DNA of 64,000 nt from Candidatus Latescibacterota bacterium. Its GTDB lineage: Bacteria > Latescibacterota > UBA2968 > GCA-2709665. The DNA is taken from positions 5,536,001 through 5,600,000 of the forward strand of contig OZ252100.1 of assembly GCA_965248435.1 (NCBI GenBank), given 5' to 3'. The translations under genes were made by a program, and so were the position numbers. The notes beneath the pieces are model-generated. The model was given only the letters and a program-made list of their open reading frames with translations, did no database searches and was not told where the DNA came from. Positions 28,112 to 47,316 of this stretch are shown here, one piece after another (the stretch's first letter is position 1; the number at the start of each line of letters is the position of its first letter).

Positions 28112-28134
28112 GAAGGGGGGTTCTTTGGGGTGAT

Positions 28135-28863
28135 ATGAGTCCTCGTAATATCCTTGTGCAGAGAACAGAACAGGATGTGTCCTATCACATCTTTGATTTC
28201 GAAAAGACTCAGGTCTTGAACGAACCTATTTCCATCGAAGATCGGCAGGGACATTGCCGGGGGCAAATTTGCGCAGAGGAATTAAGCATCATTTGTACAG
28301 TTGATGAAGTTCAGGAGTGTTTTCGTAGCTACTTTAACCCAAAGGAGTGGGATTTTGAATCAGAAGAAGGCTTGCCATTTCCGGAGCGCCCGGAAGTAGC
28401 GGATATCCTGAATCGACGGGATATTCGTAGTGTCACACTAGGAAAGTATAATCGCACAGATCGTGAAATGATGAGTGCACGTATTCCATATGCCTGTCCA
28501 GCAACGGGAGGACGTAAATATCCCGGTCAGCTAAACTTTAAGGTTGAACATTACCTTAGTTGTGCTGGTTACGATAATGCTAGACATTATGAATGCAAGA
28601 CAACTGAGATCTTAATTGCTGCCAAACGGCATAATTGTCATGATACTATTGTGGATTTATTAGCCGGAGCAACCGGTCGGGTTGAATCCGCATTTCTGAA
28701 GGCGGAATTTGAGGGTATTCTTGAGAGAGGTTCGATAGAGTATCTAGAGCCTCCGAAACAAGCCATTAAGAAACTGATGCATATCATTGATGAGCTTTAT
28801 CGGACGCGAGAAAACGAGGATGTCTTTCGGAGTTTGTCCGACAGGGCCAGGGAGAAAGTTTAA
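28135..28863 (+). CDS. Hypothetical protein, possible QueF/T-fold-like
   Basis: RBS GGGGTGA; CPATG motif and later YL...HYE; stop overlaps the next start (TAATG). Function speculative. Confidence 0.5.
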   Translation: MSPRNILVQRTEQDVSYHIFDFEKTQVLNEPISIEDRQGHCRGQICAEELSIICTVDEVQECFRSYFNPKEWDFESEEGLPFPERPEVADILNRRDIRSVTLGKYNRTDREMMSARIPYACPATGGRKYPGQLNFKVEHYLSCAGYDNARHYECKTTEILIAAKRHNCHDTIVDLLAGATGRVESAFLKAEFEGILERGSIEYLEPPKQAIKKLMHIIDELYRTRENEDVFRSLSDRAREKV

Positions 28864-29885
28864 TGGAATCATTTGGTCAATATATACGGAACCGAATTAG
28901 AGTTGAAGTGGATGTAACAATTCGTCTGGGGCCGATCGAGTTCCGTTTGGTGAGTAATGTTCCTGAATTCCCAACATTGCAATTCTTTAGCAAGACTGCT
29001 CAGAAACTGCATAATGATGAGGATATAGCATTTGAGTTGTGGTGTGTATCACTGGAAAAGATCTCTATTAATTGGGATTACATACTGAAACAAATTGACC
29101 ATACTTGCAGGGGAAAAGGGTTCTCTAAGGGATACTACGCGACCGATCATTTTGGCTCACCAATTTACCTTGTCACCCGAGGACGGCGTTTCTATGTATT
29201 TGGTGAACAATTGGAACGTGTAGTTTGGCCCTACTTTGTCAAATATTTTCTACTTTTGCATTCAATCGATGATGAATCGCTGCATCTCAAGGGTGCGGCT
29301 TGTGCAATTAAAACGGCTGGCACGCTTCTGCTTGGCCGGGGAGGAAGCGGGAAGACAGTCTTCCTTACTCAACTGTGCGAACACGGGGCGGGATTTGTGA
29401 CCAATTCTCACGCTGTAGTTAAGGAATGTCGCATTACAGGCGTTGCCAGTTCGATACGTATCCGATCTGGGCCGTTGTTCTCCAGTTTTGGAGACAAGGC
29501 CGAGCGGAAACCAGCCCTTGAAACCGGGGAAGTTATCATTGATCCCTACGATGTATTCGATAACTACAACACTTACGATTCAGTAGAGATCAAGAATTTG
29601 TGTATTATCGATTTTCATCATTCTGGTCATCACGTCATTAAAGAGGTTGTGGAGCAAGATATCTACAACTATGCTGAACAGTTTTCTTTGGCAATTAATG
29701 TGTATCGTTTGGAGGAGGATCTGCTGGACCTTTACAAAGGTGATTATAGGGAGTTCTCTGAAGTTTATGAAAAGATGAAGATCCAACTCAAGAATCTCAT
29801 ACATCAAAGCAACTGCTATTACATCAGCAGCGATATGTTTAAGGAGACATATCGGAATGAAGTTCTTGACTTACTCTCTAAATAA
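28863..29885 (+). CDS. fomB: FomB-family (HPr-kinase-like) P-loop kinase
   Basis: GYY..HFG.P..L.T.GR.FYVFG..LE..VWPYFVK, LHLK.A, GRGGSGKTVFL.Q, EQFS.A...Y.L..DLL match my recollection of Streptomyces FomB over its full length; needs an alignment to confirm. Confidence 0.7.
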   Translation: MESFGQYIRNRIRVEVDVTIRLGPIEFRLVSNVPEFPTLQFFSKTAQKLHNDEDIAFELWCVSLEKISINWDYILKQIDHTCRGKGFSKGYYATDHFGSPIYLVTRGRRFYVFGEQLERVVWPYFVKYFLLLHSIDDESLHLKGAACAIKTAGTLLLGRGGSGKTVFLTQLCEHGAGFVTNSHAVVKECRITGVASSIRIRSGPLFSSFGDKAERKPALETGEVIIDPYDVFDNYNTYDSVEIKNLCIIDFHHSGHHVIKEVVEQDIYNYAEQFSLAINVYRLEEDLLDLYKGDYREFSEVYEKMKIQLKNLIHQSNCYYISSDMFKETYRNEVLDLLSK

Positions 29886-29900
29886 GTGAGGATGTAGTCA

Positions 29901-30401
29901 TTGTCTACTTCATCAAAATACATTATTTCAATTTCTGACTTGAGTTTGCTGCGCACTCAGTTGGCAAAACAAACAGTTGTGTTGGGAACTGGTTGTTTCG
30001 ATTTACTACATGTTGGACATCTACACTTTCTTATAGAGGCACGTAAGCAAGGTGAAGTTTTGGTGGTAGGAATCAATAGCGATGATTCAATAGGCATAAT
30101 AAAGGGGCCTCACAGGCCAATTCAAAAGGAAGATCAACGTTCTGAGCTTATAGGGGCTCTCCGGTATGTTGATTATGTTTTTATCTACGATGATGTTGTT
30201 GCGGATAGCTGCATTCTTAGATTGAAGCCGGATATCTACGCCATTGGTGAAGAGAGTGTAGAGACTTATCCTAGCGAACTTGCTGCGGCAAACAGTATCG
30301 GAACACGCATACATGTTGTGAGACGAATACGATCTGCGTCAACAACATCGATCGTTGAAACTGTTTTGAGTCAGAACGAAAAAAAATCTCAGGATGTCTA
30401 G
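29901..30401 (+). CDS. HldE/RfaE domain II-type nucleotidyltransferase
   Basis: GCFDLLHVGH (HxGH), VVGINSD, KGPHRPI, STTSI. Confidence 0.9.
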   Translation: MSTSSKYIISISDLSLLRTQLAKQTVVLGTGCFDLLHVGHLHFLIEARKQGEVLVVGINSDDSIGIIKGPHRPIQKEDQRSELIGALRYVDYVFIYDDVVADSCILRLKPDIYAIGEESVETYPSELAAANSIGTRIHVVRRIRSASTTSIVETVLSQNEKKSQDV

Positions 30402-30416
30402 CGATGAAAGGAATCA

Positions 30417-31718
30417 TTGCCCGATGTGCATTTTGCAGAAACCAATTCGTTGAAAACCATTGTTACGCGAGATGCAATAATGTCACGACCGTGTTCTAGT
30501 CTTCGAATCAATAGATCAGAAGAGCTTTTGCAGCGGGCCGAAACCTGCGATGCATGGGCTGCCACGCGCCAGAGAAACTATTATTCCATTGAGAAATCAT
30601 ATCCAGTATATGCAAGCCATGCTAAAGGGTCACATGTTTGGGATGTTGACGGAAACTGCTACATTGACTACACATTGGGATATGGAACAGTTGTACTCGG
30701 CCATGCAGACTCAAGAGTGACCAATGCGGTAGTAAAGGAACTCGAAAGCGGTAGTTGTCTTTCTCCGTTGTGGAAACCGGCCCAGGTTGAGTTAACGAGC
30801 CTTCTTTCTTCTGTAATCCCCGGAGCAGAGATGGCTTTTCTGATGAAAACGGGCTCAGATGCAACCAGTGGTGCGCTTCGACTTGCGCGAATTTACACTT
30901 GTCGTGATAAAGTTGTTCGGTGGGGTTACAATGGATGGCATGATTGGGCAACGCCACGTCCTATGGGTGTTCCTCCATCAACTCGAGCAGAAACACTCAA
31001 TTTTGACTATAACGATACGGCATCACTCAAGGCGGTATTTGAAGAAAATCCGGACCAAATTGCCTGTGTCTTAATGATGCCTTTTGAACTGGACGCGCCA
31101 TGTCCAGGCTTCTTACAGGAGGTTAAGGCTATCGCGCATGAGTACGGCGCGCTATTCGTGCTTGATGAAATGCGATCCGGCTTCCGTATGGCGCTTGGTG
31201 GAGCTCAAGAGTATTTTGGCGTACAGGCTGATTTGGCGACATATAGCAAGGCAATGTCGAATGGCTATCCTATTTCTGCTATTGTTGGGCGACAGGAAAT
31301 TCTTCGAGGTGTTGGTCGCACAAAAATGACATCTACGTTCTTTACAAGCTCTGCCGAAATGGTCGCTGCTATGACAACCATCTCTATACTAAGGGAAACG
31401 GATGCGCTTTCTCATATATGGGCGATGGGTAGGATGCTTCAACAAGGCCTTAGTGTCCTTGTCGATGAACTTGGTGTTCCTGCTCAGGTTGTTGGTTTTC
31501 CACCACTTCCCTTTATGCAATTTACTATAGCCGATGATATCAATCGTGAACATGCTAAATCAGTATTCTATTCGGAAACAACAAGATTGGGCGTCATGTT
31601 TCATCCCAGCCATCACTGGTATATATCCGCTGCACATACTCCACTAGACATCAGACATACGCTTGATGTGTGCAGAAAGGGTTTTGAAGCGGTAGGGCAC
31701 GAAATCGTTGAAGCTTAG
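30417..31718 (+). CDS. Class III (GSA-like) PLP aminotransferase
   Basis: WDVDGNCYID, KTGSDA, GYNGWHDW, LDEMRSGFR, YSKAMSNG (PLP Lys). Confidence 0.92.
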   Translation: MPDVHFAETNSLKTIVTRDAIMSRPCSSLRINRSEELLQRAETCDAWAATRQRNYYSIEKSYPVYASHAKGSHVWDVDGNCYIDYTLGYGTVVLGHADSRVTNAVVKELESGSCLSPLWKPAQVELTSLLSSVIPGAEMAFLMKTGSDATSGALRLARIYTCRDKVVRWGYNGWHDWATPRPMGVPPSTRAETLNFDYNDTASLKAVFEENPDQIACVLMMPFELDAPCPGFLQEVKAIAHEYGALFVLDEMRSGFRMALGGAQEYFGVQADLATYSKAMSNGYPISAIVGRQEILRGVGRTKMTSTFFTSSAEMVAAMTTISILRETDALSHIWAMGRMLQQGLSVLVDELGVPAQVVGFPPLPFMQFTIADDINREHAKSVFYSETTRLGVMFHPSHHWYISAAHTPLDIRHTLDVCRKGFEAVGHEIVEA

Positions 31719-31762
31719 TCTCTCCTGGAGATCGAAGCACAAAATAATCATTCATCGTACAA

Positions 31763-32560
31763 TTGGCTCGGGAATGCGAATACACTTACGAACTGGAACC
31801 TAGCATTATGGCAGACTCTAGACAGAACGTATTAAGCCCATCTGACACTGAACAAGCCACCCGTAAGCAGCTGTTGCAAATGTTTGAGGGTACTCCCATC
31901 CCTCGAGAACTGATATTGGAGAATTTGGAGCTATATTTGCGTCCTCAGAGGATTTCTGAAATTCTTTCCCTCCAGCGAATTTATGCGAAAATTCTGGATG
32001 TTCATGGCATCATTGTAGAATTTGGGGTGCGTTGGGGACGCCATCTATCTGTTTTTAGTGCCTTGCGTGCGATCTACGAGCCATATAACTTCTATCGCAA
32101 GATAGTTGGTTTTGATACATTTACAGGTTTCTTAGAAGTAACCCCAGAAGATGGTATGTCTGACAGAGTTCACGTAGGCTCTATGAGCGTTTCTGAGGGT
32201 TATGAGAAATATCTAGACAAAGTCTTAACCCTACATGAAGCAGAAGCACCGCTGTCACATATAAAACGTATTGAGCTATACAAGGGAGATGCACCTGTTG
32301 AACTTGAAAAATACTTGGAAAGCCATCCTGAGACAATTGTTGCATTAGCGTATTTCGACATGGATCTCTACAAACCAACGAAACATTGTTTGGAATTGAT
32401 TATGCCCTTTTTGACAAAGGGCAGTATTTGTGTATTTGATGAACTTTCACATCCAGAATTTCCCGGTGAGACGTTAGCGCTCAAAGAGGTTTTGGCCATT
32501 ACACAACATAAAATTGAGCGCTTCTCCACTATACCTTATCCTCACTATATTGTGATGTAA
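31763..32560 (+). CDS. TylF-superfamily, CalS11-like NDP-sugar O-methyltransferase
   Basis: EFGVRWGRHL, LRAIYEPYN, GFDTFTGF, ALAYFDMDLY, FDEL...PGE, as recalled for CalS11. Confidence 0.82.
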   Translation: MARECEYTYELEPSIMADSRQNVLSPSDTEQATRKQLLQMFEGTPIPRELILENLELYLRPQRISEILSLQRIYAKILDVHGIIVEFGVRWGRHLSVFSALRAIYEPYNFYRKIVGFDTFTGFLEVTPEDGMSDRVHVGSMSVSEGYEKYLDKVLTLHEAEAPLSHIKRIELYKGDAPVELEKYLESHPETIVALAYFDMDLYKPTKHCLELIMPFLTKGSICVFDELSHPEFPGETLALKEVLAITQHKIERFSTIPYPHYIVM

Positions 32561-32583
32561 TCCGATCTGATTTAGATCAAATC

Positions 32584-34122
32584 TTGAAGAAGACTCGTCT
32601 TATGAATATGAATCATAGCGCCATTCTAAAGTGGATTGTGGATTCCAGTAGATCTCTTCCTTCTCCTCTTGAATTTGATGAGGATATGCTGATTGACCTA
32701 GTTGATGTCCACAACTTGTCTGGGCGGCTGATGCAAAGGCTCAGAGGGCGCAGCGCACCTCGCCTTACACCAAAGTTCAAAGAGAATCTTTCAGATTTAT
32801 ACGCACTAACGAAACGGAAGAGCATCCAAAATGTGAATGCTGTTCGCCAAATACAGGATCTGTTACCTTTAAACACCGATGTTATCATTATTAAGGGTGT
32901 TTCAACATATGTGCTAGTAGGCCAAGAAAGCATTATGCGAGCAGGTGATATCGATGTTCTCAGTAACAATAATTCAGCAGTTGTAGATACACTGCTTAAT
33001 CTAGACTATCAACAAACTAGGGCTCCTTTCTTGCATGAGGTTGGAGAGTACACGAAGGATACCATAGAAGTGGATGTACATGACCATTTTCCTGTGTACT
33101 CTTACACCGATTTACTCCTGAACGCTAATCTAACGCCTTCCAGTAACTCGGGAGTGTGGCATCAAAGCTATACAATGAAGCAATGTGCAATCACTTATAG
33201 TGATTTGAGAAAACACTCTTATCAGGGGAATAAGCCTGATACAATGAACATTACTGTAGCAGATCCTAACATCTTAGCTATAATAATCTGCGCCCACGCC
33301 TTTATGAATTACACAAACATGTGGTCTATCTCACATCGGGAAAAAGCTTATGTTCGACTTGGTGAGATTGGCGATTTGTTTGAGTTAGTAAATCATCCAG
33401 CATTTAGTGCTGGAATCTTTCTGTCTTTGGTAGAGCGCTTCGAAGCCTTAGATGCGGTTGAGTGGGCGGCAAATGTAACCTCTGTCCTATTTGGTAAGAA
33501 TCCCCTTCCACTTGGTAGTTCAGTAACTCTTGGTGAAGAGCTTCCGAATACCCGTTTCCCACGATGCTTGTGGTGGAATTTTTGGGCAAATCTGCCATCA
33601 GGAACTGATGAACTTATTCAGAAATGGTGGCTGCCAATGGATAGGCTTACAAGAGAGCTAGGTCATAACAAACTGACGACGCATCAAGGAACTTCAGGTC
33701 TACATAGCACAATTCGCCAAGGTGGCTGCAGCTTGTTGCAGCGTTTCATCACCCAAGAAGAATACCCCATCCCGTTGATACTTGAAATCAGTACATCCGA
33801 AACGAGTCTAGTAATCAATATCAATGTTTTATCAAACCTGGACACAGATATAGATCGGATACGGATAGACTTTGGCTGTGTTGCTAGTGAATGGTCATAT
33901 TCCAGAAATGACCGGAATCAAACGGTGGTGGGACATTTTCCTAATGTGGCGTTTGATGATCAGGGTACACAATATCAGATTAGATTTGATTATTCATTGG
34001 AGTTATTCGGTCAGTCAATCAAGGAGATGCGAAAGGTGGCTTTGTTAGTTGGCGTAGGAAAACAATCTCATAATTGTGGCTTAATGGCAAGTACACTAAT
34101 TCCCATGACAGTTGAGCTTTGA
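32584..34122 (+). CDS. Nucleotidyltransferase (NTP_transf_5-like) with C-terminal beta-sandwich domain
   Basis: IIIKG...MRAGDIDVL, IEVDVH, ICAHAF; C-terminal beta-rich region. Confidence 0.75.
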   Translation: MKKTRLMNMNHSAILKWIVDSSRSLPSPLEFDEDMLIDLVDVHNLSGRLMQRLRGRSAPRLTPKFKENLSDLYALTKRKSIQNVNAVRQIQDLLPLNTDVIIIKGVSTYVLVGQESIMRAGDIDVLSNNNSAVVDTLLNLDYQQTRAPFLHEVGEYTKDTIEVDVHDHFPVYSYTDLLLNANLTPSSNSGVWHQSYTMKQCAITYSDLRKHSYQGNKPDTMNITVADPNILAIIICAHAFMNYTNMWSISHREKAYVRLGEIGDLFELVNHPAFSAGIFLSLVERFEALDAVEWAANVTSVLFGKNPLPLGSSVTLGEELPNTRFPRCLWWNFWANLPSGTDELIQKWWLPMDRLTRELGHNKLTTHQGTSGLHSTIRQGGCSLLQRFITQEEYPIPLILEISTSETSLVININVLSNLDTDIDRIRIDFGCVASEWSYSRNDRNQTVVGHFPNVAFDDQGTQYQIRFDYSLELFGQSIKEMRKVALLVGVGKQSHNCGLMASTLIPMTVEL

Positions 34123-34173
34123 GGTAGTGCAAGACCTCAAGAAGCGTTACAAACCTGATCACCAATTACCCCG

Positions 34174-35208
34174 ATGGCCAGTATAAAAGGTCAGAGAAAG
34201 AAGATGTCATCAATCAAGCGAAGCACAGATCCTGAGGCACCAGATGTTTCAGTGGTAATTGTGAACTGGAACACACGCGAACTATTGCAGCAAACTCTTG
34301 AATCACTGTATCGTGAAACTCAGCAGGTTACATTTGAAACCATCGTTGTGGATAACGGATCGACCGATGGAAGCTTTCAGCTCCTTCAACATGCGTGGAA
34401 GCAAGTCTGTTCAATTGCCTTAGCCGAAAACAAGGGCTTCGCTGTCGCGAACAACATTGGCATTAGGATAGCAAGTGGCAGATATGTTCTGCTGCTCAAC
34501 AGCGATACAATTGTGCTGCCGACTACGCTGTGCGGCATGGTTAGTTTCTTGGATGCATATCCTGACACAGGTTGCGTTGGTTGTCGGCACCTGAACCTCG
34601 ACGGTTCTCTGCAACGCTCAATGGATAGTTTTCCTAATTTGCTTAACGACTTGCTCAGTTATTCCGAGTTATACCGACTACCCCTTTTGTTGCCATTCTT
34701 ACAGCGCCGCTTCCCGTGGTGGAGCGACCATAACCATGTCCGAGATGTTGATTGGGTTAATGGTGCCTGTATGATGGTTCGACGCCAGGTGATTGCAAAG
34801 GTGGGTGGGCTAGATGAATGCTATTTTATCTATGCAGAGGAGATCGATTGGTGCTACCGGATGCGTAAAGCTGGCTGGAGCGTCTACTTTGTCCCCGAGG
34901 CAGAGATTATACATATTGGTGGACAGGCAATGAACCGCGCTGCGGACATACGCGTTGTTCTCAAATACAAGGGACAGTGTCGCTTTTACCGGAAACATTA
35001 TCCTGTGTGGAAATATATTGTGTTGCGCACAATAGTTATGAATGCTGCAGCCCTTCGTCTAGTGATTATCTGTATCTTTTGCTCGCTATCATTGTTTCGC
35101 GAAGACACCAACAATGTTCGATGGGAATTACTTACCCAAGAATCAGTAGTAACCGAACCAGTTACTATGTTGCGCGCATGGTGGAGAATTCTTTGGCTCC
35201 CGTGGTAA
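34174..35208 (+). CDS. GT2 glycosyltransferase
   Basis: VSVVIVNWN, VVDNGSTDG, LLLNSD, GACMMVR, YAEEIDWC. Confidence 0.93.
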   Translation: MASIKGQRKKMSSIKRSTDPEAPDVSVVIVNWNTRELLQQTLESLYRETQQVTFETIVVDNGSTDGSFQLLQHAWKQVCSIALAENKGFAVANNIGIRIASGRYVLLLNSDTIVLPTTLCGMVSFLDAYPDTGCVGCRHLNLDGSLQRSMDSFPNLLNDLLSYSELYRLPLLLPFLQRRFPWWSDHNHVRDVDWVNGACMMVRRQVIAKVGGLDECYFIYAEEIDWCYRMRKAGWSVYFVPEAEIIHIGGQAMNRAADIRVVLKYKGQCRFYRKHYPVWKYIVLRTIVMNAAALRLVIICIFCSLSLFREDTNNVRWELLTQESVVTEPVTMLRAWWRILWLPW

Positions 35209-35246
35209 ATAAGAATGACAATTACGGAGCGTATTGGGAATGAACA

Positions 35247-36230
35247 ATGGCTATCTTGGTGACTGGAGGAGCAGGTTTTATTGGATCGCACGTAGTTAAG
35301 GAATTGTTGAAAGAGCGATATGAAGTTGTAGTCTTAGATGATCTTTCCGGTGGATTTCTCGAAAATCTTTCAGGAGATGCAATTTTTGTCAACGGTAGCA
35401 TCACGGACGAAAGACGTATTAATCAATTATTTGAAGCACACCAATTTGAGTACATCTTTCATTGTGCGGCATATGCTGCCGAAGTTCTAAGCCATCATAT
35501 CAGAAAGTTCAATTATGAAAATAACATGCTCGGCACCGTAAATTTAATAAATGCTGCCATAAACCATGATGTCAAATGTTTTGTCTTTACCTCTTCAGTT
35601 GCGGTTTATGGCGATAATCAAACTCCGTTTTGCGAAGATCTCATTCCGGCTCCAATTGATCCATATGGGATTGCGAAATTGGCTGCCGAACTAGATCTAG
35701 CGGCAGCGCATTCATTCTTCAAATTACCATTCATCGTCTATCGGCTTCATAACGTCTACGGTGAACATCAAAACATAAGTGATAAATATCGTAATGTTGT
35801 CGGTATATTTATGAATCAATTGTTGCGAAATGAACCGATGACCATTTTTGGAGACGGGAAACAAACACGTTCTTTCAGTTATGTTAAAGACATTGTTCCT
35901 CTCATTGCAAAATCTATACATAATGGGAAGGCGTACAATGAAGTGTTCAATGTGGGTTCTGACACAACAGTAAGCCTCAATGAGTTAGCATCTATTGTTT
36001 CCTCGGTTATGGGTATGAAGGCGAAAATCAAATATTTAAGTCCTCGTCATGAGGTGAAGCAGGTTTGCGTTTCGCATGAGAAGATGAAAGCCATTTTTGG
36101 AGGACTCGAAGAGACCCCATTGGAATCAGGGTTGAGGGAAATGTTTGATTGGATTAAAGGACATGGTAGTCGTGCTCCCAGATACTTTAGAAGAATTGAA
36201 ATCTCGAAAATGCTACCCGAAGCTTGGTGA
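35247..36230 (+). CDS. NAD-dependent epimerase/dehydratase (extended SDR)
   Basis: GGAGFIG, TSS, YGIAK, NVYG. Confidence 0.93.
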   Translation: MAILVTGGAGFIGSHVVKELLKERYEVVVLDDLSGGFLENLSGDAIFVNGSITDERRINQLFEAHQFEYIFHCAAYAAEVLSHHIRKFNYENNMLGTVNLINAAINHDVKCFVFTSSVAVYGDNQTPFCEDLIPAPIDPYGIAKLAAELDLAAAHSFFKLPFIVYRLHNVYGEHQNISDKYRNVVGIFMNQLLRNEPMTIFGDGKQTRSFSYVKDIVPLIAKSIHNGKAYNEVFNVGSDTTVSLNELASIVSSVMGMKAKIKYLSPRHEVKQVCVSHEKMKAIFGGLEETPLESGLREMFDWIKGHGSRAPRYFRRIEISKMLPEAW

Positions 36231-36553
36231 TTATCAATAAGCTTTGTTAAGTCGATACAGAGCGAATTCAGGTCGCACTGGGGGACAATGCAGGCGAGAG
36301 GGAATCTTCAGACTAACTGAATGAGAGCAGATGCTAGCCTGAGAGATTTCGTTCGCATCAGCGATAGCCACAAGGCAATCTGGAACACCCGCCCTGTTTC
36401 GATGACTTAGGTATGGGATTTCTTGACGTAGCTCGGGTGACAGCGGTTCCCCAAGGCCCACAGCAGAGAATGGAGTGCCTGAGGCAGCAATATAATCAGG
36501 AGCTTAAGGGGACTTGTTCACAAAGAAGTCGCTCGGAGATGCCACTGTTCTGA

Positions 36554-37663: not shown

Positions 37664-37799
37664 AGGATTGGGGGTTGCGCGCCCTATTTTTCAAACCGAT
37701 GGCGGCATAGTTTTGCTCGGGCACCAATCTATCCTACCGGCCACTATCCAGTTATAGCAGAATTAGAATGGGAATCACAAACTTGATAGGGAAAACAAA

Positions 37800-38615: not shown

Positions 38616-38792
38616 GTAAGGTATTAGTTCGTACCTCGGCTGATGAAAGTCAGAAGCTAGATCTTCCGGTGGAACTCAGATAGGTTCACATTGTGGCTCT
38701 TTGGCATCGTGAACTCTTTCGCCTACAAAGGATCACGTGTCCATCAACTCGAGGAAACTCTACCTATCAAATGTGATCACTCCGGAGGCGAC

Positions 38793-39521
38793 ATGACAAA
38801 GGTTGACACTGAAATGTGGCAAATCGAACGCGAAGTTACCTTCGACTTGAGCGTAGATCAGCGATCGACATTTTTGGACGCCGTCAATGAACATAGAAAC
38901 AGAAAGAACTCGACACCAGGCAGCACGGTGGGTTGGAAGCGGCGAACACGTGTATATCTTTTCCATCAGGCAGCCGGCGGCGGACCAGTGGTCCGAACGG
39001 TGATCGAGGTACGGCGAAGAGACCGGATTCGTGCCTGGCTTGACTCAAAGCTCTGGACGCCACTTAGTGGTGGAACTACGAAGCTACAGTCCGCCAGAAC
39101 CTACCTCACGCAGGAGCAGTTAAAGGAAGTGTTAAGTTCTGAGGCATATGCTTGCGGGTTTGTGAAACTGAGATACTCGCGGAGCCTCGACAGCACAGCG
39201 CAGGTTCCAGCTATTTCCTTAAAGGTGAGCGTGGATACCATTTGTCCCTTTTCCCCATCGAACCCGTTTCAATTCGCCGAGCCGTTTACACATGTCGAGT
39301 TCGAACTTCCACTGGGAAGTAATTCCGCTCGGGATGGGCGTTTCGTGGTTGAGGAGGTACCGTTGACTTTAGTGCAACTCTTGGATTGTCGGGCCACAGT
39401 CTCCAAGAGAGCGCGAGCTAACCTATTCTCGCGCGACACGATTCCATCAAGCCAAACACGATCCGCATTGACGTTTCTCCTTGAGGCAGTGAGGCGATGC
39501 GAGTGTTCATGGTCTCTCTAG
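38793..39521 (+). CDS. Divergent CYTH-like (triphosphate tunnel) protein
   Basis: RBS GGAGG; IEREVTF, FVKLR, VSVD, HVEFE, SKR. Confidence 0.5.
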   Translation: MTKVDTEMWQIEREVTFDLSVDQRSTFLDAVNEHRNRKNSTPGSTVGWKRRTRVYLFHQAAGGGPVVRTVIEVRRRDRIRAWLDSKLWTPLSGGTTKLQSARTYLTQEQLKEVLSSEAYACGFVKLRYSRSLDSTAQVPAISLKVSVDTICPFSPSNPFQFAEPFTHVEFELPLGSNSARDGRFVVEEVPLTLVQLLDCRATVSKRARANLFSRDTIPSSQTRSALTFLLEAVRRCECSWSL

Positions 39522-40011
39522 CAATTTGGTTCTGACACTGTTTGCTGGGATTCAGAGCCCAAATCGACCAAGCTTCCCAAGCGTGGTAAATACCAAGACT
39601 TTCTAAGCAGAAGGTTTTAAGGCGGCTCAAAGATTGAGGTATTTTGATTCAAAAATTGTGTGCTCATTGTTGATTATTGCATCGTACCAGTTCAATAAAG
39701 AAGTGCAACGCTTAGGGTCGAATGATTCCTACCCGAAGTGTAAGAGAAAGAGATATAAGCATCTCAAGTGCGACCGTCACCCCAACTTTCAAATAGGCCG
39801 ATTAGAACGGACAAACGCTAGGCGTTGATGAAACTCAACTGATCCGAAATCTATCACCTCTTTGTGGTCGCCTTATATATGATTTTTCGCACAGCGCATT
39901 CACCAGTGTGAAGGAAGCAGAAGCCTGCCATCCCGCCCTTTCATAAGTGGGATTTCAGGCTTGCCGGATAAATGTCTTGTCGGCGTATCGAATTGTTGGA
40001 GAGCAGAAATA

Positions 40012-40833
40012 ATGGCAACAGAAACCGACAAGATCGAGATTGAATACAAGTTCACTCCATTCGACGACGATGAAACCACGCTGTCATTGATCAGGGCAGT
40101 GGCAGTTCCGCCGTGGGCGATACTTAGATTACCCCCGGTCACTGTTCTAGATATTTATTTCGACACTGAAGATTTGTTCTTTCACCAAGCGGGTGCTTCA
40201 TTTCGTGTGCGAAAAAGGGGGAAACCTTACCAACGGTATCTGAATCCACTGGGTTATAGCGCAAATTTCAAGGGTCCGACTCGAAGCATTGACTCGCGTA
40301 TCCTCGAAAAGAGAGAAGTTCGTTCTGCGATTGAAGCCGATGAAGTGCTGTCGTATTTGTCAAACTCGCTCCCTGGGAATGCAGCATTACTTGCATATCA
40401 ATTTATCGAGGAACAATCTCGAGCTAGTTCATCTTTCCGCTCCGGGGTGGTGATGGCACCAGTGGCTCACATCGTCTCGGCTCGCCGCGTCTATAACGTG
40501 GGTCCCGTCGGAACAAGCTGGCCGAAATCGAGACATCCGCCTTGGGGTGCCCTCGTACACGTAGTCCTCGAGGAGGTAACCGCTTGTGACATCAGAGGCT
40601 CTCGACGTGCTGCTGATTGCCTCATCACAGAAGGCAGAATGGATCTCACGGAGCCAGTCGAGGCACGACGGTGGCTTTCGGGAGAGGTCGAGCTGGCCCA
40701 CCATTTTCCCGATCTTCGAGATGAGGGTAAGACGCTCTTTCAACGTATCGTCGAAAGGTTCCATTCACATTGTCTAACGACTGACGGTCAAAGCAAGTAT
40801 TCAACGTTCATGAACATGCTGACCAATTTATGA
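40012..40833 (+). CDS. CYTH-domain protein
   Basis: EIEYKF (ExExK), DIYFDT, FRVRK, FKGP, KREV, EVE, SKY. Confidence 0.82.
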   Translation: MATETDKIEIEYKFTPFDDDETTLSLIRAVAVPPWAILRLPPVTVLDIYFDTEDLFFHQAGASFRVRKRGKPYQRYLNPLGYSANFKGPTRSIDSRILEKREVRSAIEADEVLSYLSNSLPGNAALLAYQFIEEQSRASSSFRSGVVMAPVAHIVSARRVYNVGPVGTSWPKSRHPPWGALVHVVLEEVTACDIRGSRRAADCLITEGRMDLTEPVEARRWLSGEVELAHHFPDLRDEGKTLFQRIVERFHSHCLTTDGQSKYSTFMNMLTNL

Positions 40834-40861
40834 GCCCAACGCTCCCTTGTTCCCTATCTCA

Positions 40862-41436
40862 GAGTTCGCTTGGAACCTCGCCGAAGAGATTGCAATAGAC
40901 GAAAACAACGTTGACCCAAGAAAGTTCTTCCGTTTCCACTTGAAGCGTGGGGTATTGCCTAGTCAGGGGGGAGTACGGGCATATGTAAGCTTTTTGTGGA
41001 ACGTTATCGCAATCTATTCATAAAAGTCACTGTACATGCACATCCGATCTACTACGTGCCCCTTGACTATGTTTGCAATGAAACCGAAAGAGTAACAGTC
41101 TACGATGTATTTATCAACAGAATTGGAGTAGCTGTGGTTGAGAAAGGATACTTTGTTGAGGATCCATCGCCGATAAAGTCAGAATCCTTACAGGAAATCA
41201 GTTTGGAAGATCCAAACGTTTCGGTCCACACCTCTCGAAGTAGCTATCGTGTCGAAATCGGAATTCCTTGGAATATGTTGCCTATCATTCCCCGCTCAGG
41301 AATGGATCTGGGGCTCGAAATCGAAGTGTTGAATTGTTGTGAGGGCCGCTTTCCAGTCCTGCATCGAAGAACACTAATTGCCTGTTCAGGCGGACCACTT
41401 TTCCGGAGTAATACCCTGAGTTTTATGGCAGTTTAA
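40862..41436 (+). pseudogene. Frameshifted relic of the CBM9-like C-terminal domain of 44459-46351
   Basis: EFAWNLAEEIAIDENNVDPRKFFRFHLKRGVLPSQGG...LWN, then a shift to NLFIKV...EIGIPW...LGLEIEV; colinear with the paralog. Confidence 0.8.
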
Positions 41437-41500
41437 TTCTGACTGATTAAGATGTGCCAATTTGCTAAACGTTTCGGACCTAGATTAACGAAGAAACGAA

Positions 41501-42532
41501 ATGGGTGATCAATCATTTATTAGAGTCAAGAATTTGACCAAAGAATTCCGCATCCTGAAGAGAAAAGAGGGGGTTTGGGGCGCGGTCCGTAATTTGTTCA
41601 GCAGGCAGTATGAGGTTAAGATAGCGGTGAACAACGTCTCCTTTGAAATACAAAAAGGGGAGATCATTGGATATATAGGGCCAAACGGTGCAGGAAAGTC
41701 AACAACAATCAAAATGCTAGTTGGCATATTGGTGCCCACAGATGGTTGCGTAGAGGTTGGGGGATTGGTTCCTCATGAAGATCGAATTCAGAATGCAAAG
41801 AGAATGGGCGTCGTTTTTGGTCAGCGCACTCAGTTGTGGTGGGATATTCCTGTTTCAGAATCCCTGAACTTGATGAAGTACATGTACCAAATTCCCGATG
41901 CACAATTTAAGGCCAGCCTAGACGATTTCTCTGACATACTCGACCTGAAAGAATTTTTCAATGTCCCCGTAAGGCAACTTAGTCTTGGCCAGAGAATGAG
42001 ATCAGACCTCTGCGCTGCTTTCCTGCATAATCCAGACGTTCTCTACTTAGATGAGCCAACGATCGGATTAGACGTAGTTGTGAAAAATAAAATCCGAGAG
42101 TTTATAAAGGTAGTCAACCAAGAGCGCGGCACAACAGTCATGCTAACGACTCACGACATGTCCGAAGTCGAAAAGCTCTGCTCCCGTGTATTGACAATCG
42201 ACCAGGGAAAGATTGTGTACGACGGAAATCTACAGAATCTGAAAGATCTATACGGAACAGAAGAGACAATGATTGTGGAAACGGAGAACCCTACGTCCAG
42301 CCATGGTGGCCTGTATCGTCTGGGCGTATCAGAAGTGACGCAGGAAGACTATAGGATGTTCATTAAATATGACAGAAAGAAGGTAAATGCTACATCGATC
42401 ATTGGTTGCATAATGGCAAATGAAAGAGTCAGAGATTTTGTTGTCAAGGAAACAGAAATCGAGGAAGTCATTCGAAAAATGTATCTTGATCAGCCAGCTT
42501 TGAATGGATCAGAAAGGTGCAAATTGTCATGA
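41501..42532 (+). CDS. ABC transporter ATP-binding protein
   Basis: GPNGAGKST, LSLGQ, YLDEPTIGLD, TTHD. Confidence 0.95.
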   Translation: MGDQSFIRVKNLTKEFRILKRKEGVWGAVRNLFSRQYEVKIAVNNVSFEIQKGEIIGYIGPNGAGKSTTIKMLVGILVPTDGCVEVGGLVPHEDRIQNAKRMGVVFGQRTQLWWDIPVSESLNLMKYMYQIPDAQFKASLDDFSDILDLKEFFNVPVRQLSLGQRMRSDLCAAFLHNPDVLYLDEPTIGLDVVVKNKIREFIKVVNQERGTTVMLTTHDMSEVEKLCSRVLTIDQGKIVYDGNLQNLKDLYGTEETMIVETENPTSSHGGLYRLGVSEVTQEDYRMFIKYDRKKVNATSIIGCIMANERVRDFVVKETEIEEVIRKMYLDQPALNGSERCKLS

Positions 42533-43329
42533 GAGTAAATTTTGAAGTCGCCAAGCTCGCCTTTCAGGCAAATCTGGCCTACAAAATGAACACGCTTTTG
42601 ACTCTTGTGAATCAGGTATTCTTTCTTTATTACCGCATTTATATCTGGCGTGCCCTCTATAGGGGCATGGGAAGTGCTGCAACCAGAATGGGAGCAATAA
42701 GTTTGCGAGACATGACTACCTATTCTGTAGTAAGTGCTGCGCAGTCCGTAGTAATTGAGACTGAGGTTCTTACCAGGATGGATGAAAAGATTAGGACCGG
42801 CGAAGTCGCAATGGACTTAACCAAGCCTCTTAGCTTGAAAATGTTTCTATTCAGCGAAACGATTGGGAATAACGCCTACAAATTCATCGTTGAGCTTACT
42901 CCCTTGGTGCTAATGAGTCTATTCTTATTTGGCATTGAGGTTCCCTGTTGGGAAAGTCTAGTGATTTTTGCCGTGTCTCTGGTAAACGGAATGATCATCT
43001 ACTTTCTGATATGTTATTCCCTTGGCCTCCTTGGGTTCTGGTACCTTTCAGTTTGGCAATTCAAAATGCTCTTGGGCAATCTGATAAATGTATTCGCAGG
43101 TTCAGTCATACCGCTTTGGTTTTTTCCGGATTTTCTGGCCCAACTCTCACTCTTCCTCCCTTTTCGATTTATATACTTTGTTCCGTTGTCAATATATCTT
43201 GAAAAAGTAGATCCAGCAGGAGCTATTTGGTTAGTCTTAGAACAGATCATGTGGATTGGCATCCTTCTGATAGTAGAAAAAACGTTATGGCGGAAGGGAG
43301 TCAAAAAGATCGTGGTTCAGGGAGGATAG
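42517..43329 (+). CDS. ABC-2 family (DUF990-type) permease
   Basis: Six TMs, IRTGEVAMDLTKP, FAGSVIPLWFFP, C-terminal VVQGG. Confidence 0.9.
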   Translation: MQIVMRVNFEVAKLAFQANLAYKMNTLLTLVNQVFFLYYRIYIWRALYRGMGSAATRMGAISLRDMTTYSVVSAAQSVVIETEVLTRMDEKIRTGEVAMDLTKPLSLKMFLFSETIGNNAYKFIVELTPLVLMSLFLFGIEVPCWESLVIFAVSLVNGMIIYFLICYSLGLLGFWYLSVWQFKMLLGNLINVFAGSVIPLWFFPDFLAQLSLFLPFRFIYFVPLSIYLEKVDPAGAIWLVLEQIMWIGILLIVEKTLWRKGVKKIVVQGG

Positions 43330-43330
43330 C

Positions 43331-44149
43331 GTGAGGCACATCAAACTTTACGCAAGATACATTACGATTTCTATCAAAAGTAGAATGGAATATCGATTCG
43401 CGTTTTTCGTGGACCTCGTTGTTCTTGTACTTGTTTATTCAATGGGATACTTGGGAGTATTCATAATTCTAAGCAAATTCAAAACCATACAGGGTTGGAA
43501 TTTCTATGAGGTGATTCTCCTTTACAACATGAACCTGTTCGCCTACGCACTTGGCAGCATGTTCTTCAGCTCTATGCGATGGTCTGACGAACTCGTGCGG
43601 CTCGGAACGTTCGACAGTATGATGGTATACCCTCTGAATCCTTTCTTGTGTGTAGTTTACAGGAATTTCGGAAGTTCCTATTTTGCCCATATTGGACTGA
43701 GTGTTGCGTTTTTCATTCTTTGTTTCAGAAAGTTGGATATCCCTTTTAGCGTTGCAAATTGTATTTGGTTTGGTTTAGTCCTAATCGGTGGCGCGATGGT
43801 GATTGCTGGTATTCAGGTCGCAGTTGGGGCAACGAGTTTTTGGTTTGTCAAGTCGACTTCGACTTTCGATGGAATTCTAGTCACGTGTAGAAATATCACT
43901 TATTATCCAATTACGATTTTTGGTGGATGGGTGCAGATTCTGGTGACGTTTTTCGTCCCATATGCGTTTGTGTCCTTCTATCCAGCGGAGCACTTTCTTA
44001 GCAAGTCTGGGGAGTCCCTAGTTTATCCACTTTCGCTATTTGATCCTGTTCTTCAGTACGCGACTCCTGCTGTCGGCCTAGTATCTTTCTCGCTCGCCTA
44101 TAGGCTGTGGACGTTTGGCCTCACCCGGTACCAAAGTACCGGTTCGTAA
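43331..44149 (+). CDS. ABC-2 family (DUF990-type) permease
   Basis: MEYR, GTFD...PLNP, YPITIF, C-terminal YQSTGS. Confidence 0.9.
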   Translation: MRHIKLYARYITISIKSRMEYRFAFFVDLVVLVLVYSMGYLGVFIILSKFKTIQGWNFYEVILLYNMNLFAYALGSMFFSSMRWSDELVRLGTFDSMMVYPLNPFLCVVYRNFGSSYFAHIGLSVAFFILCFRKLDIPFSVANCIWFGLVLIGGAMVIAGIQVAVGATSFWFVKSTSTFDGILVTCRNITYYPITIFGGWVQILVTFFVPYAFVSFYPAEHFLSKSGESLVYPLSLFDPVLQYATPAVGLVSFSLAYRLWTFGLTRYQSTGS

Positions 44150-44209
44150 AGCTGTCACGATGGGGAAAAAGTCAATCTATTCCCTCACATATCAGTAGTT
44201 ATTTCCCAT

Positions 44210-44243
44210 ACACTTAGGATAGGACTGAAGCTATCCTAAGTGT
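44210..44243. repeat. Perfect 13-bp inverted repeat
   Basis: ACACTTAGGATAG-N8-CTATCCTAAGTGT. Confidence 0.85.
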
Positions 44244-44458
44244 TGCACTTCCTTATTGAACTCGTGTTTTGTAAAACCCAACGTATTGTGGCAATTCAAA
44301 ACAGAAAAACCTGGGAGGGCATCGGGATGAAGGCCCTGACAAAGGATAAATACCGCATGCCCTCTCCGGCTCCCGTAGCATATGCGACGGAAACGTCCTC
44401 ATTTTTACAGGGATGGGGCGAACTCGGTTCTACACTGATCCGGGAAAGATGAGATGCC

Positions 44459-46351
44459 ATGATCATGCAAGATGGCAATCCTTCTAGTGGTCTTGTTAAG
44501 GGGTTAAAGGAAGATTGTAATCCACCATTAGAGCTGTCCTTAGGAGATAGATTACTAGTACATTTTTCAAGATCCTTTTTGGTTCCAGAAGTTGTGGAAT
44601 CAGTTAAAGAAATGATAAGAGGCCATATTGATTGGAAGGCATTTCTTGAAGAGGCAAAGCGGCATAGAATTTTAGGTTTTATTAATTATCATTCCTTGAC
44701 TCACAACTTGCAGTTGCCCTCGGGAGTTATGGACCTCATTGTACGCGATGCCAAAGCCAATAGAGATCAGGCCAAAGTGCTTTTTCGTGAAATTGCCCGA
44801 ATTTCGCAAGCATTCGCCGATATCGGTGCTCCAGTCGTGCTGCTGAAGGGACCTGCACTCATCCACCAAGTTTATCGTTCGCCTTCAATTCGGGCATTCG
44901 GTGATATAGATATCTTAACCCCTTCTAGCTATGTTCAAGAAATCGAAAAATACCTTCGAGGGCAAGGGTGGGTTCATGGCTTCAGAGATATCAGTAGCAA
45001 TGAATTGATACACCCGAGCCTCGACGAATTGGAAGTGTTTAATGTCGATCATCGATGCCCGCTGTGGAAAGAAGAAATTGCGATCGATGTTCATTCCGCT
45101 GATCTGAGGCCCGGAAAAGTGGACTTTGATAGTTTAATTAAGAATAGTAGAACCCTTGACGAAATTGGACCGGGACTAAGAGTACCTTCATTATCTGATC
45201 TCGTTATTCATTCTGCATTCCACTTCTACAGACACTACGCCCTTGAACGAAGACCGCTCAGGAAAGTACGACTCAAATACCTTGCAGATATATATGCCTG
45301 TTTACGTGCATACTTAAGTGGATTCGGCAATTGGCCTTTACTGCTCAAACGTGCAAGCGATATCTGTGCGAAAGAAATCCTCATTTACGGTCTCTTTTAC
45401 GTGAATGTTGTCTACGGCAATGGAACCATTCCCAAGGAAATAATGGAGGATTTGCTTAGTCAAGACGGGATTATGGTTCCTATTTATCACAAAGATCCGA
45501 TTCCTGTTGATTCCATCGAAAGACTTCTCAGATCCGAGATTCGAACTACAACTAGCACTATTCGCCCTGCCCTATGGATGTTTCACCTAGACGACGTAGC
45601 TGAGAGACTCATCAAGGAACTAAGAGACTGGGAAGCACAAGGCGGGGAGATGCTAGTTGCTCGCTGCCTAGAAGTTGATTCCTCATCTTTAGTTGACGAT
45701 GATCCTAATGATTGTATGTGGAAACTCTCTGAGGAGATATCAATAGACGAGGAAGTTATCGACCAAAGAAAATTCTTCCGTACACATGTAAAGTGCGGTA
45801 TATGGCCGAGTCAAGGTGGAGCTCGTGCATGCTTTCGTCTTCTTTGGAATGAGCAGAATCTATTTCTTAGATTGAATGTGTTTGCCAATGTCATTCACTA
45901 TATGCTTCTAGGGGATATGAAAATTATGTCTAGATCCCGTGGTGAAGGAGTGATGATTTACATTTCTCACGACATGGGTGGAACGACAACCATTAACAAA
46001 ATTGGATTGGGTATTCGACAGGGTGGAGTTATTGTACCGTTAGCGTCTCCAATATCACAAGAAATACGTTGTCCAGAAGTAGCACGCTGTCGCGAGGTTA
46101 AGCCAGAAGATTTACGCGTCTCGGTCCTTCCATCAAGCAATAGTTACAGTCTTGATATCAGTATCCCCTGGTCAGCTATTGAGGTTGTCCCGTCTCCAGG
46201 ACTGCACCTTGGCCTTGAAATTGAAGTAAATAACGATGCACCAGTCCGTTCTTCCTCTAATACATATCTAAGAACTCGTATTGCGTGGGCAGGAGGACCA
46301 TTCTCAACAGACGACTACCCAGAGTTTTATGGTACCTTAGTTTTGGCATAA
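44459..46351 (+). CDS. Nucleotidyltransferase (NTP_transf_5-like) fused to a CBM9/DOMON-like domain
   Basis: VLLKG...RAFGDIDIL, IAIDVH, HSAFH, LKYLADI; C-terminal LLWNEQNLFL...YSLDISIPW...LGLEIEVNND...YGTLVL. Confidence 0.82.
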   Translation: MIMQDGNPSSGLVKGLKEDCNPPLELSLGDRLLVHFSRSFLVPEVVESVKEMIRGHIDWKAFLEEAKRHRILGFINYHSLTHNLQLPSGVMDLIVRDAKANRDQAKVLFREIARISQAFADIGAPVVLLKGPALIHQVYRSPSIRAFGDIDILTPSSYVQEIEKYLRGQGWVHGFRDISSNELIHPSLDELEVFNVDHRCPLWKEEIAIDVHSADLRPGKVDFDSLIKNSRTLDEIGPGLRVPSLSDLVIHSAFHFYRHYALERRPLRKVRLKYLADIYACLRAYLSGFGNWPLLLKRASDICAKEILIYGLFYVNVVYGNGTIPKEIMEDLLSQDGIMVPIYHKDPIPVDSIERLLRSEIRTTTSTIRPALWMFHLDDVAERLIKELRDWEAQGGEMLVARCLEVDSSSLVDDDPNDCMWKLSEEISIDEEVIDQRKFFRTHVKCGIWPSQGGARACFRLLWNEQNLFLRLNVFANVIHYMLLGDMKIMSRSRGEGVMIYISHDMGGTTTINKIGLGIRQGGVIVPLASPISQEIRCPEVARCREVKPEDLRVSVLPSSNSYSLDISIPWSAIEVVPSPGLHLGLEIEVNNDAPVRSSSNTYLRTRIAWAGGPFSTDDYPEFYGTLVLA

Positions 46352-46900: not shown

Positions 46901-47059
46901 GCTCAAAAAAGTAGTAGTTATTTGTCTTAAGGCCTTCAGCGCACAAGACTATCAAACTTGATATAGCTTCCCCTACCAAGCGAATTAGCTATCCTTGCGC
47001 GCCATTTTTCGTATTCCTCCATGATGCTTCTCGAATGGCACGCTATGTACGTTCGGAAG

Positions 47060-47307: not shown

Positions 47308-47316
47308 ATTCCTGTC

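Follow-up and report, generated by a model that had tools for sequence, protein, structure and literature searches.

Mining genomes with resistance genes as guides is one of the few routes to antibiotics with a predictable target, and Erm blocks drugs that bind at A2058 of the large ribosomal subunit. In the clusters for lincomycin and celesticetin, a sugar kinase, a nucleotidyltransferase, an epimerase, a Gfo/Idh-type enzyme, an aminotransferase and methyltransferases build a nucleoside diphosphate (NDP)-amino-sugar, with an aminoacyl step like that of nonribosomal peptide synthetases (NRPSs) and an A2058 methyltransferase. We analysed a 64,000-nucleotide stretch of a Candidatus Latescibacterota genome (contig OZ252100.1; hereafter the window), in which positions 28135–46351 carry an Erm-type gene together with genes for sugar tailoring. 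There we found what we class as a decayed copy of a cluster of a known kind, in which biosynthetic genes enclose a resistance gene that modifies the target. Compared by function, lincosamide clusters share with this operon family an amino-sugar route and Erm, and three related loci from Acidobacteria also carry NRPS genes, which neither the window nor most of the loci contain. The enzyme families differ, however: lincosamide clusters use a DegT-type aminotransferase, a GHMP kinase and a GlmU-type nucleotidyltransferase, whereas the operon described here has a class III aminotransferase, a protein-kinase-like (PKL) enzyme and a small cytidylyltransferase. Lincosamide clusters are also not known to have a counterpart to two proteins of this family, a FomB-like kinase and an NTP_transf_5 enzyme with a CBM9-like domain.

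Other described pathways share different parts of the locus. For the lasso peptide pseudomycoidin, a review describes an HPr-kinase homologue that makes a phosphate ester and a nucleotidyltransferase that attaches one or two hexoses (PMC8498205). Like the pathways of the lasso peptides paeninodin and pseudomycoidin, the present family has a FomB/HPr-kinase-like kinase and an NTP_transf_5 enzyme (PF14907), here both as core genes; unlike them, it has among its scanned open reading frames (ORFs) neither a lasso cyclase or protease nor a PqqD-like protein or a conserved precursor. We take the pseudomycoidin nucleotidyltransferase to be a PF14907 member. In aminonucleoside biosynthesis, according to two reports, a dehydrogenase and an aminotransferase aminate a nucleotide-borne sugar, and a Nudix enzyme (Pur7) and a monophosphatase (Pur3) remove phosphates (PMC11641026, PMC9239236). 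The pathways to puromycin, A201A, cystocin and ADG (Pur10, Pur4, Pur7, Pur3) resemble the present family, which has a Gfo/Idh oxidoreductase and an aminotransferase, a Nudix gene in 16 loci and an inositol monophosphatase (IMPase)-family phosphatase gene in 6, but the window itself has neither a Nudix nor a phosphatase gene, and there is no Pur6-type synthetase. Pur4 belongs to an aminotransferase family other than class III, and the mechanism of puromycin resistance is not known to be Erm. FomB, the fosfomycin-monophosphate kinase, is the best-scoring named family for one kinase of the locus; the score is below the cut-off, however, PEP mutase and fom gene families had no match in the window ORFs or the scanned neighbours, and the kinase is a fixed core gene here, not an accessory. 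Finally, CalS11 of the calicheamicin pathway, which acts on TDP-rhamnose according to its PDB title, is a strong homologue of the methyltransferase of the locus, where there is no enediyne context.

The 18-kb stretch consists of two modules: module A (28114–38615) is a copy of an operon that recurs in other lineages, and module B (38691–46351) is made up of unrelated neighbours. Within 28135–46351 the + strand carries 17 ORFs of at least 100 amino acids, where a preliminary description of this DNA had counted about 15 co-directional genes, and the GC content is 0.42–0.47 across the stretch compared with 0.58 in the upstream block. Families were assigned by Pfam, NCBIfam and PADLOC scans and by searches against solved structures (PDB). 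Module A begins with the 5′-truncated remnant of the core PKL gene (g01, 28114–28863; ORF from 28135, 242 aa), followed by genes for a FomB/HPr-kinase-like P-loop kinase (g02, 28863–29885), a cytidylyltransferase-family nucleotidyltransferase (g03, 29901–30401; PF01467, 60 bits), a class III aminotransferase (g04, 30417–31718; PF00202, 148 bits), a CalS11-like sugar O-methyltransferase (g05, MT24, 31763–32560) and an NTP_transf_5 enzyme with a C-terminal CBM9-like domain (g06, NT5a, 32584–34122), all of them core. Two accessory genes, for a family 2 glycosyltransferase (GT2; g07, 34174–35208; PF00535, 83 bits, and synteny) and a GalE-like short-chain dehydrogenase/reductase (SDR) epimerase/dehydratase (g08, 35247–36230; PF01370, 187 bits), precede the core gene for a Gfo/Idh/MocA oxidoreductase (g09, 36554–37663; PF01408 and PF22725) and the full-length gene for an Erm-type 23S rRNA adenine N6-methyltransferase (g10, 37800–38615). 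The scans thus supported the aminotransferase, GT2, SDR, Gfo/Idh, ABC-2 and two NTP_transf_5 genes listed before. Polyketide synthase, NRPS, PepM and lasso cyclase families had been described as missing and indeed had no match among the 17 ORFs, and PADLOC gave no match for any tested protein of either module.

Examination of the individual enzymes sharpened some of these assignments and loosened others. The kinase g02 scored 313.3 bits against NF000361 (FomB; E 1.7e-93), so a FomB-like kinase is present, but the score lies below the curated cut-off of 400 bits and the protein falls outside the FomB family by that measure. Its protein-atlas neighbours are labelled 'HPr kinase family protein' (score 0.96), it has no relative among PDB structures, and its family is rare, with 168 representative clusters at E ≤ 1e-3 among 1.84 billion. 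Neither the 17 ORFs of the window nor the neighbouring ORFs scanned in related loci gave any sign of a phosphonate context (PEP mutase, fom genes). As the gene is among the most conserved of the core and always stands beside the PKL and cytidylyltransferase genes, the FomB-like kinase looks biosynthetic rather than like an add-on resistance gene, which speaks against its earlier interpretation as a self-resistance enzyme. The cytidylyltransferase g03 scored 123.2 bits against rfaE_dom_II (TIGR02199), short of the cut-off of 181.5 for HldE domain II, and its relatives in the PDB are ethanolamine-phosphate cytidylyltransferase (ECT, 77 bits), an RfaE-like protein (54 bits) and CCT (37 bits). Because of this low score and the order of its nearest solved relatives, ECT before RfaE-like, the former 'HldE-type' label is not secure. 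Relatives of g04 among solved structures are an aminopentol aminotransferase, glutamate-1-semialdehyde (GSA) aminomutase, aminoglycoside C-6′ aminotransferases, NeoN and ForI. The CalS11-like assignment of g05 was borne out by PDB entry 4gf5, 'TDP-rhamnose 3′-O-methyltransferase (CalS11)' (230 bits, E 2.5e-67, residues 25–263 aligned), an alignment that implies O-methylation at the nucleotide-sugar stage. For g06, the NTP_transf_5 score (44.0 bits) passes the PF14907 gathering score of 31.2, as does that of the second such protein, g17 (139.9 bits). Foldseek searches with an AlphaFold2 model of g06 (pLDDT 85) returned CBM9 entries (7nwo, 7nwn and 1i82; E 1e-4 to 1e-3, probability 1.00) and weak matches to the nucleotidyltransferase fold (5uvd, E 2e-3). 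The SDR g08 matched UDP-glucose 4-epimerase (196 bits), the best PDB match of g09 was YjhC (60 bits), and a full-length PKL homologue is predicted to fold as a Hanks-type kinase flanked by helical domains at its N and C termini (pLDDT 88).

Related loci were collected by searching public genomes and metagenomes with the FomB-like kinase, and synteny was counted by tblastn of all window genes against the resulting 36 loci (L numbers). They come from metagenome-assembled genomes (MAGs) of Bacteroidetes, Acidobacteriota/Pyrinomonadaceae, Saccharibacteria, Microgenomates and Ignavibacteriaceae, from metagenomes, and from actinomycetes (ten Streptomyces genomes or MAGs, an Actinoplanes and an unclassified actinobacterium), a spread of at least five named phyla plus Streptomyces/Actinoplanes. 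The genes g01–g10 recurred in kept order: the cytidylyltransferase in 34/36 loci, PKL in 32/36, NT5a in 24/36, the aminotransferase in 23/36, the CalS11-like methyltransferase in 21/36, Gfo/Idh in 17/36, GT2 in 10/36 and the SDR in 8/36. Where PKL or the cytidylyltransferase is missing, the contig breaks off at the FomB-like gene. The core comprises the PKL kinase, the FomB/HPr-kinase-like kinase, the cytidylyltransferase, the class III aminotransferase, the CalS11-like methyltransferase, the NTP_transf_5–CBM9 protein and the Gfo/Idh oxidoreductase. It was not found on viral contigs. The open literature, searched without subscription journals and supplementary files, yielded no description of this gene combination and mentions PF14907 once, in an unrelated phosphonate context. 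We conclude that this is a rare, horizontally mobile biosynthetic operon family for which no published description was found.

Accessory genes were identified by clustering 400 ORFs, scanning representatives and counting by tblastn. A NodU-like carbamoyltransferase occurs in 9–11 loci, and a Nudix hydrolase gene stands directly after the cytidylyltransferase gene in 16 GC-rich loci. Aminoglycoside phosphotransferase (APH)-domain fusions are found in L002 and L003, a Nudix–APH fusion among them in L003, and phosphatases of the endonuclease/exonuclease/phosphatase (EEP) family in L003 and L032. L021 and L022 carry additional genes for a sulfotransferase-like protein ('capsular polysaccharide synthesis' domain), for synthesis of the sulfate donor PAPS, and for HAD, PfkB and glycosyltransferase proteins. 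In actinomycetes the operon is a compact unit of eight translationally coupled genes with variable flanks, in the order aminotransferase, methyltransferase, NT5a, PKL, FomB-like kinase, Gfo/Idh, cytidylyltransferase and Nudix. A conserved non-coding stretch 3′ of the Streptomyces operon had no Rfam match in three loci (L015 has a distant tRNA), and positions 24000–52000 of the window had none either.

The identity of the Erm proteins was set by two models, requiring a score at or above the cut-off of NF000499 and, for the KsgA/RsmA model, one under its own. The protein g10 scored 222.4 bits against NF000499 (cut-off 212) and 164.5 against ksgA (cut-off 171), so the earlier Erm assignment stands; it has 1015 relatives at E ≤ 1e-20, several of which bear the name Erm in their source records. 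In 12 of the 25 non-actinomycete loci, an Erm-type gene lies next to or within the operon. Seven of the eight tested, the window's included, pass NF000499 (L003 229.7, L004 232.9, L008 236.8, L022 229.8, L032 215.2, L034 233.6); that of L002, at 201.3, lies under 212. From their sequences, the linked proteins are predicted A2058 methyltransferases. Erm has core genes on both sides in L022, L032 and L034–L036, and in L002 the operon opens with it. Counting the window, at least nine lineages bear Erm, with kinase identities between them of at most 65%, so that a resistance gene is kept in the cluster across independent lineages, except in the 11 actinomycete loci. Eight of the 13 non-actinomycete loci without Erm are contigs of at most 6.3 kb (L001, L005, L019, L024, L027, L029, L030 and L038), and L019 comes from one MAG together with L008, an Erm-bearing locus.

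The Erm genes do not follow the history of the core. Whereas the window kinase is closest to those of L002 (65%) and L003 (63%), its Erm is closest to those of L028, L022 and L008 (57%, 54% and 50%) and only 36–41% identical to those of L002 and L003, the value for L002 being 36%. At least two Erm subfamilies are represented: L034 matches the ErmE/H/O/R model with 292 bits, and the others, environmental types carried by low-GC lineages, have Erm42 as next-best or third. These patterns are consistent with an operon at which Erm has been recruited or exchanged repeatedly. Together, the mismatch in identity and the two subfamilies favour a functional linkage, most simply self-resistance to a product that binds the 50S subunit.

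Comparison with intact homologues revealed that the copy in the window is broken. The g01 ORF corresponds to the C-terminal 43% of a kinase-like protein of ~570 aa and is 54–70% identical to the C-terminal part of 500–574-aa proteins in L001–L003. In the alignment it begins at a Met inside the catalytic-loop motif 'WGDMSPRN'. The frame above ATG 28135 reads stop(28111–13)-R-G-V-L-W-G-D-M-S-P-R-N, compared with '..RG(I/V)LWGDMSPRN' in the homologues, so the homology runs seven codons (R-G-V-L-W-G-D) above the ATG and ends at a TGA. This TGA overlaps the start codon (28109–28111, − strand) of a divergent Type III methyltransferase gene, placing a deletion or replacement junction at 28109–28114, where the methyltransferase start codon abuts the first kinase codon left. 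As the preliminary description had suspected for the 5′ part of the cluster, something has been lost here, namely ~320 codons of the kinase gene. A 571-aa PKL homologue matched the host's own 5.67-Mb genome only with residues 318–561, and the N-terminal half was found nowhere else in it. The kinase g02 was found in 0/40 relatives of the host (same genus, family and order), and the DNA of the two island flanks had no collinear match in the relatives G001, G002 and G007. Module A is horizontally acquired, as g02 was not found in these relatives, its GC content lies below that of the upstream flank, and recombinase or transposase genes accompany several loci (L003, L028, L030, L032 and L036). Nudix, phosphatase and carbamoyltransferase genes, which are common in other versions, had no match in the window. 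Because these are absent and the N-terminal half of the kinase is lost, the pathway is probably dead in this genome, and erm may be the part that still works.

Around this junction, the − strand of the window at 23680–28111 encodes a GajB-like UvrD helicase. It also encodes the Type III restriction-modification methyltransferase (PADLOC, 1219 bits), which matches profile positions 174–983 of 983 and may also be 5′-shortened at the kinase junction. Other copies of the operon show damage of their own: in L028 a DDE transposase (8896–9969) lies between the two kinase genes, and in L024 (4671–5400) the methyltransferase gene yields two separate matches.

Overall, we consider the chances about even that module A is a 5′-truncated copy of a mobile sugar-tailoring operon whose extended versions make a 50S binder countered by Erm. 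In such a pathway, PKL would phosphorylate a sugar or polyol, to which the cytidylyltransferase would add a nucleotide handle. On this handle the unit would be oxidized by Gfo/Idh, transaminated by the class III aminotransferase and O-methylated by the CalS11-like enzyme. By analogy with pseudomycoidin, the HPr-kinase-like kinase and the NTP_transf_5–CBM9 protein could then link the unit through phosphate to a carbohydrate acceptor, with possible decoration by GT2 and SDR enzymes and by carbamoyl- or sulfo-transferases. Nudix or phosphatase enzymes might finally strip the handles, in the manner of Pur7 and Pur3 in aminonucleoside biosynthesis. What the extended versions make would be a small, secreted amino-sugar phosphate compound; the recurring Erm suggests 50S near A2058 as its binding site, with Erm shielding the producer. 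We advance more tentatively, as something we would not bet on, that the product is a new chemotype, a phosphate-linked, aminated and O-methylated sugar antibiotic (carbamoylated, sulfated or aminoacylated in some lineages) that binds 23S rRNA in the region of A2058. Its producers would include Streptomyces, Acidobacteria and genome-reduced bacteria of the candidate phyla radiation (CPR), with Erm-type immunity recruited independently at least twice, and PKL, the FomB-like kinase and the NTP_transf_5–CBM9 protein would form a new route to phosphodiester-linked glycosides.

Several observations weigh against an Erm-countered ribosome inhibitor. Every chemical step above is predicted from gene content, and PKL is nearer to protein and peptide kinases than to APH-type small-molecule kinases. 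ORF clustering across the loci found no exporter kept with the core. Erm was not found within 10 kb in any of the 11 actinomycete loci, nor in the available sequence of five longer non-actinomycete loci (L021, L023, L025, L026 and L033), and two further Erm loci found with the window Erm as query had no core genes (0/2). As Erm is missing from the actinomycete loci and the core from both of these Erm loci, the coupling of Erm to the operon is frequent, not obligate. A preprint reports 13,375 erm matches in 12,552 CPR genomes, about one per genome (10.64898/2026.07.13.738296). With erm at this frequency and a subfamily as large as 1015 proteins, some of the Erm genes next to the operon in CPR genomes could have hitch-hiked there on mobile DNA. 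The preprint also reports that selected CPR methyltransferases gave no resistance phenotype in E. coli, with npmA-like and grm-like genes among those named (10.64898/2026.07.13.738296). The earlier proposal of a ribosome inhibitor with Erm self-resistance therefore holds only in part: Erm accompanies 12 of 25 non-actinomycete loci, but none of the actinomycete ones, and the window copy is probably non-productive. Last, the CBM9-like domain and the Kennedy/Lic-like logic of kinase, cytidylyltransferase and nucleotidyltransferase also fit decoration of a glycan.

Such glycoconjugate decoration is the alternative that survives best, plausible although we regard it as less likely. Here a kinase, a cytidylyltransferase and a phosphotransferase of nucleotidyltransferase fold would place a phospho-linked amino, O-methyl sugar or polyol on a surface glycan, and Erm would be cargo. 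The cytidylyltransferase resembles RfaE no more closely than it does ethanolamine- and choline-phosphate cytidylyltransferases, NT5a bears a carbohydrate-binding domain, and the GT2, GalE-like SDR, NodU-like carbamoyltransferase, sulfotransferase-like domain and PAPS genes are typical of glycan tailoring; Erm is also missing from the actinomycete loci and, according to that preprint, common in CPR genomes. However, Wzx/Wzy, Wzm/Wzt, priming phosphoglycosyltransferase, polymerase and polysaccharide-exporter families were found neither in the window ORFs, where the preliminary description had likewise seen none of the first two pairs, nor among the recurrent families or the scanned flanks, of which only some ORFs were scanned. 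The locus does not look like an O-antigen or capsule locus, and the ABC-2 permeases of the window are of the ABC2_membrane_6 type. Moreover, Erm stands between core genes in several lineages and two subfamilies were recruited, which passive hitch-hiking explains poorly, and in Streptomyces the operon is a self-contained unit whose flanks vary. The outcome named beforehand as contrary to an antibiotic cluster, homologues without erm in lipopolysaccharide, capsule or S-layer regions or no synteny elsewhere, was not what we observed: the core is syntenic and Erm recurs.

Less probable still is that the substrate is a peptide or protein, with both kinases phosphorylating Ser/Thr and NT5a adding the tailored sugar, as in pseudomycoidin. 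In structure comparisons the PKL model falls beside protein kinases, as well as beside the kinase domains from class III/IV lanthipeptide synthetases (8cav, 7wj7), the PKL homologue has weak matches to LanKC and thiazole/oxazole-modified microcin (TOMM) kinase profiles, and L003 has a C39-like peptidase at its edge. HPr-kinase homologues and NTP_transf_5-type nucleotidyltransferases are documented on lasso peptides in the review cited above (PMC8498205). However, among 959 intergenic ORFs of 18–110 aa no small ORF family is common to distinct lineages, only near-identical loci sharing any. The scanned ORFs included no lasso cyclase, protease, lanthionine cyclase or PqqD-like protein, the C39-like peptidase was seen in 1/36 loci, and the combination of precursor, cyclase and protease expected of a cluster for a lasso peptide or another ribosomally made peptide with post-translational modifications (RiPP) was not seen.

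The preliminary description had instead joined all genes of both modules into a single pathway, with CYTH enzymes to unmask the intermediates that bear phosphate or nucleotidyl groups and the ABC-2 transporter to export them; we now find this very improbable. All 17 genes run in the same direction at low GC content, and CYTH enzymes take triphosphates as substrates, which would suit a FomB-type product. Also in favour, the gene for a CYTH-domain protein (g12, 39961–40833) is followed by a disrupted copy (40862–41436, including a 146-aa ORF at 40996–41436) of the CBM9-like domain that the NTP_transf_5 proteins also bear. The remainder of module B consists of an ORF without family assignment (g11, 38691–39521), genes for an ABC ATPase and two ABC2_membrane_6 permeases (g14–g16, 41501–44149) and the gene for the second NTP_transf_5 protein, with a CBM9-like tail (g17, NT5b, 44459–46351). 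However, g11–g17 have homologues in 0/36 related loci, so the conserved co-occurrence proposed earlier as a test, especially with erm, was found for the core, with Erm frequent, and never for module B; one cluster is a fair description of g01–g10, syntenic in many unrelated lineages, and not of the rest. Likewise, g17 has a 44% paralogue elsewhere in the host's genome and a 38% homologue in G004 of the same family, neither near core genes, and no relative in the public genome-contig search. The ABC-2 three-gene operon recurs at 46–66% identity in same-family genomes without CYTH or NT5b. In the regions around the g17 paralogues and ABC-2 homologues, CYTH, NT5b and ABC-2 genes never occur together or beside core genes, and g14–g16 are a lineage-typical operon that is unlinked to the core elsewhere. 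Because the relatives of module B stand alone in the host's family, and CYTH accompanies the core in 0/36 loci, unmasking by CYTH is without comparative support. Of the two CYTH proteins named, g12 is marginal (PF01928, 24.9 compared with a gathering score of 23.2 bits), and a second such protein is not confirmed: for g11, scans with Pfam, NCBIfam and PADLOC and BLASTP against g12 were all empty, and the atlas was uninformative (best score 0.79, recognition 1609, which is low). That the locus is a resistance island, whose kinases, nucleotidyltransferases and glycosyltransferase, classic classes of drug-modifying enzymes, inactivate incoming drugs alongside Erm, is just as hard to credit: FomB is annotated as a self-resistance kinase and L002 and L003 have APH-domain fusions, but the conserved aminotransferase, oxidoreductase and NDP-sugar-type O-methyltransferase are biosynthetic enzymes, the gene order is fixed with translational coupling, and PKL and NT5a match no known resistance family in the scans.

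If the link between the operon and Erm self-resistance is true, the intact homologues in Acidobacteria, CPR bacteria and metagenomes are leads to a sugar-based translation inhibitor and to new phosphate-coupling enzymology, and the eight-gene Streptomyces version is another candidate source. CPR bacteria are thought to have almost no secondary metabolism. For the genome studied here the practical point is smaller, a broken pathway with a full-length erm left on an acquired island.

Module B bears traces of old rearrangements, as indicated by the disrupted CBM9-like copy and by a repeated permease end, the latter of which also counts against a single pathway. The disrupted copy gives two matches to g17, to residues 418–476 (46%) and 447–618 (38%), with one TAA and one TAG inside, and lies directly after the CYTH gene as if a CYTH–CBM9 fusion had decayed; the CBM9_1 score of g17 itself is 23.1 bits, just under the cut-off of 23.4. 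The 3′ end of the ABC-2 permease gene (43901–44196) is repeated at 47060–47354, 3.16 kb downstream and before an RND pump gene, with 75–78% identity; this repeat either stems from an old duplication or is what is left of a gene since replaced. Positions 46761–46901, considered as a fragment of an IS630-type transposase, had no Pfam support. A pairing of Erm and ABC-2 genes similar to that of the window was seen in a Daviesbacteria MAG (L138, 10001–19590), where an Erm 43% identical to that of the window lies 5–9 kb from ABC-2 genes related to g14–g16, and there are no biosynthetic core genes.

Some further features were noted in and around the stretch. A G+C-rich hairpin with a T-run at 37669–37686, between the Gfo/Idh stop and the erm start, could be a terminator or attenuator; such sites are no commoner here than in shuffled sequence, with which the counts of both promoter-like and terminator-like sites agree. 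The sequencing data listed as containing this DNA comprise four entries of one study, with no RNA data set among them. Downstream of module B, the RND pump is encoded at 47317–50475, and a tandem array of its paralogues (66–78% DNA identity) occupies G001:C1:1305000–1324300 in a genome of the same genus; a radical SAM protein gene follows 3′ of the pump at 51349–52893. Upstream, stretches of 80–90 bases at ~13925–14013 and 16132–16216 recur many times in two related genomes (73–89% identity). Elsewhere in the host's own genome, an open frame of 1098 aa contains, besides the true rpoB, another and partial rpoB-like match (G000:C1:2114080–2115234), which is thus the second in this genome.

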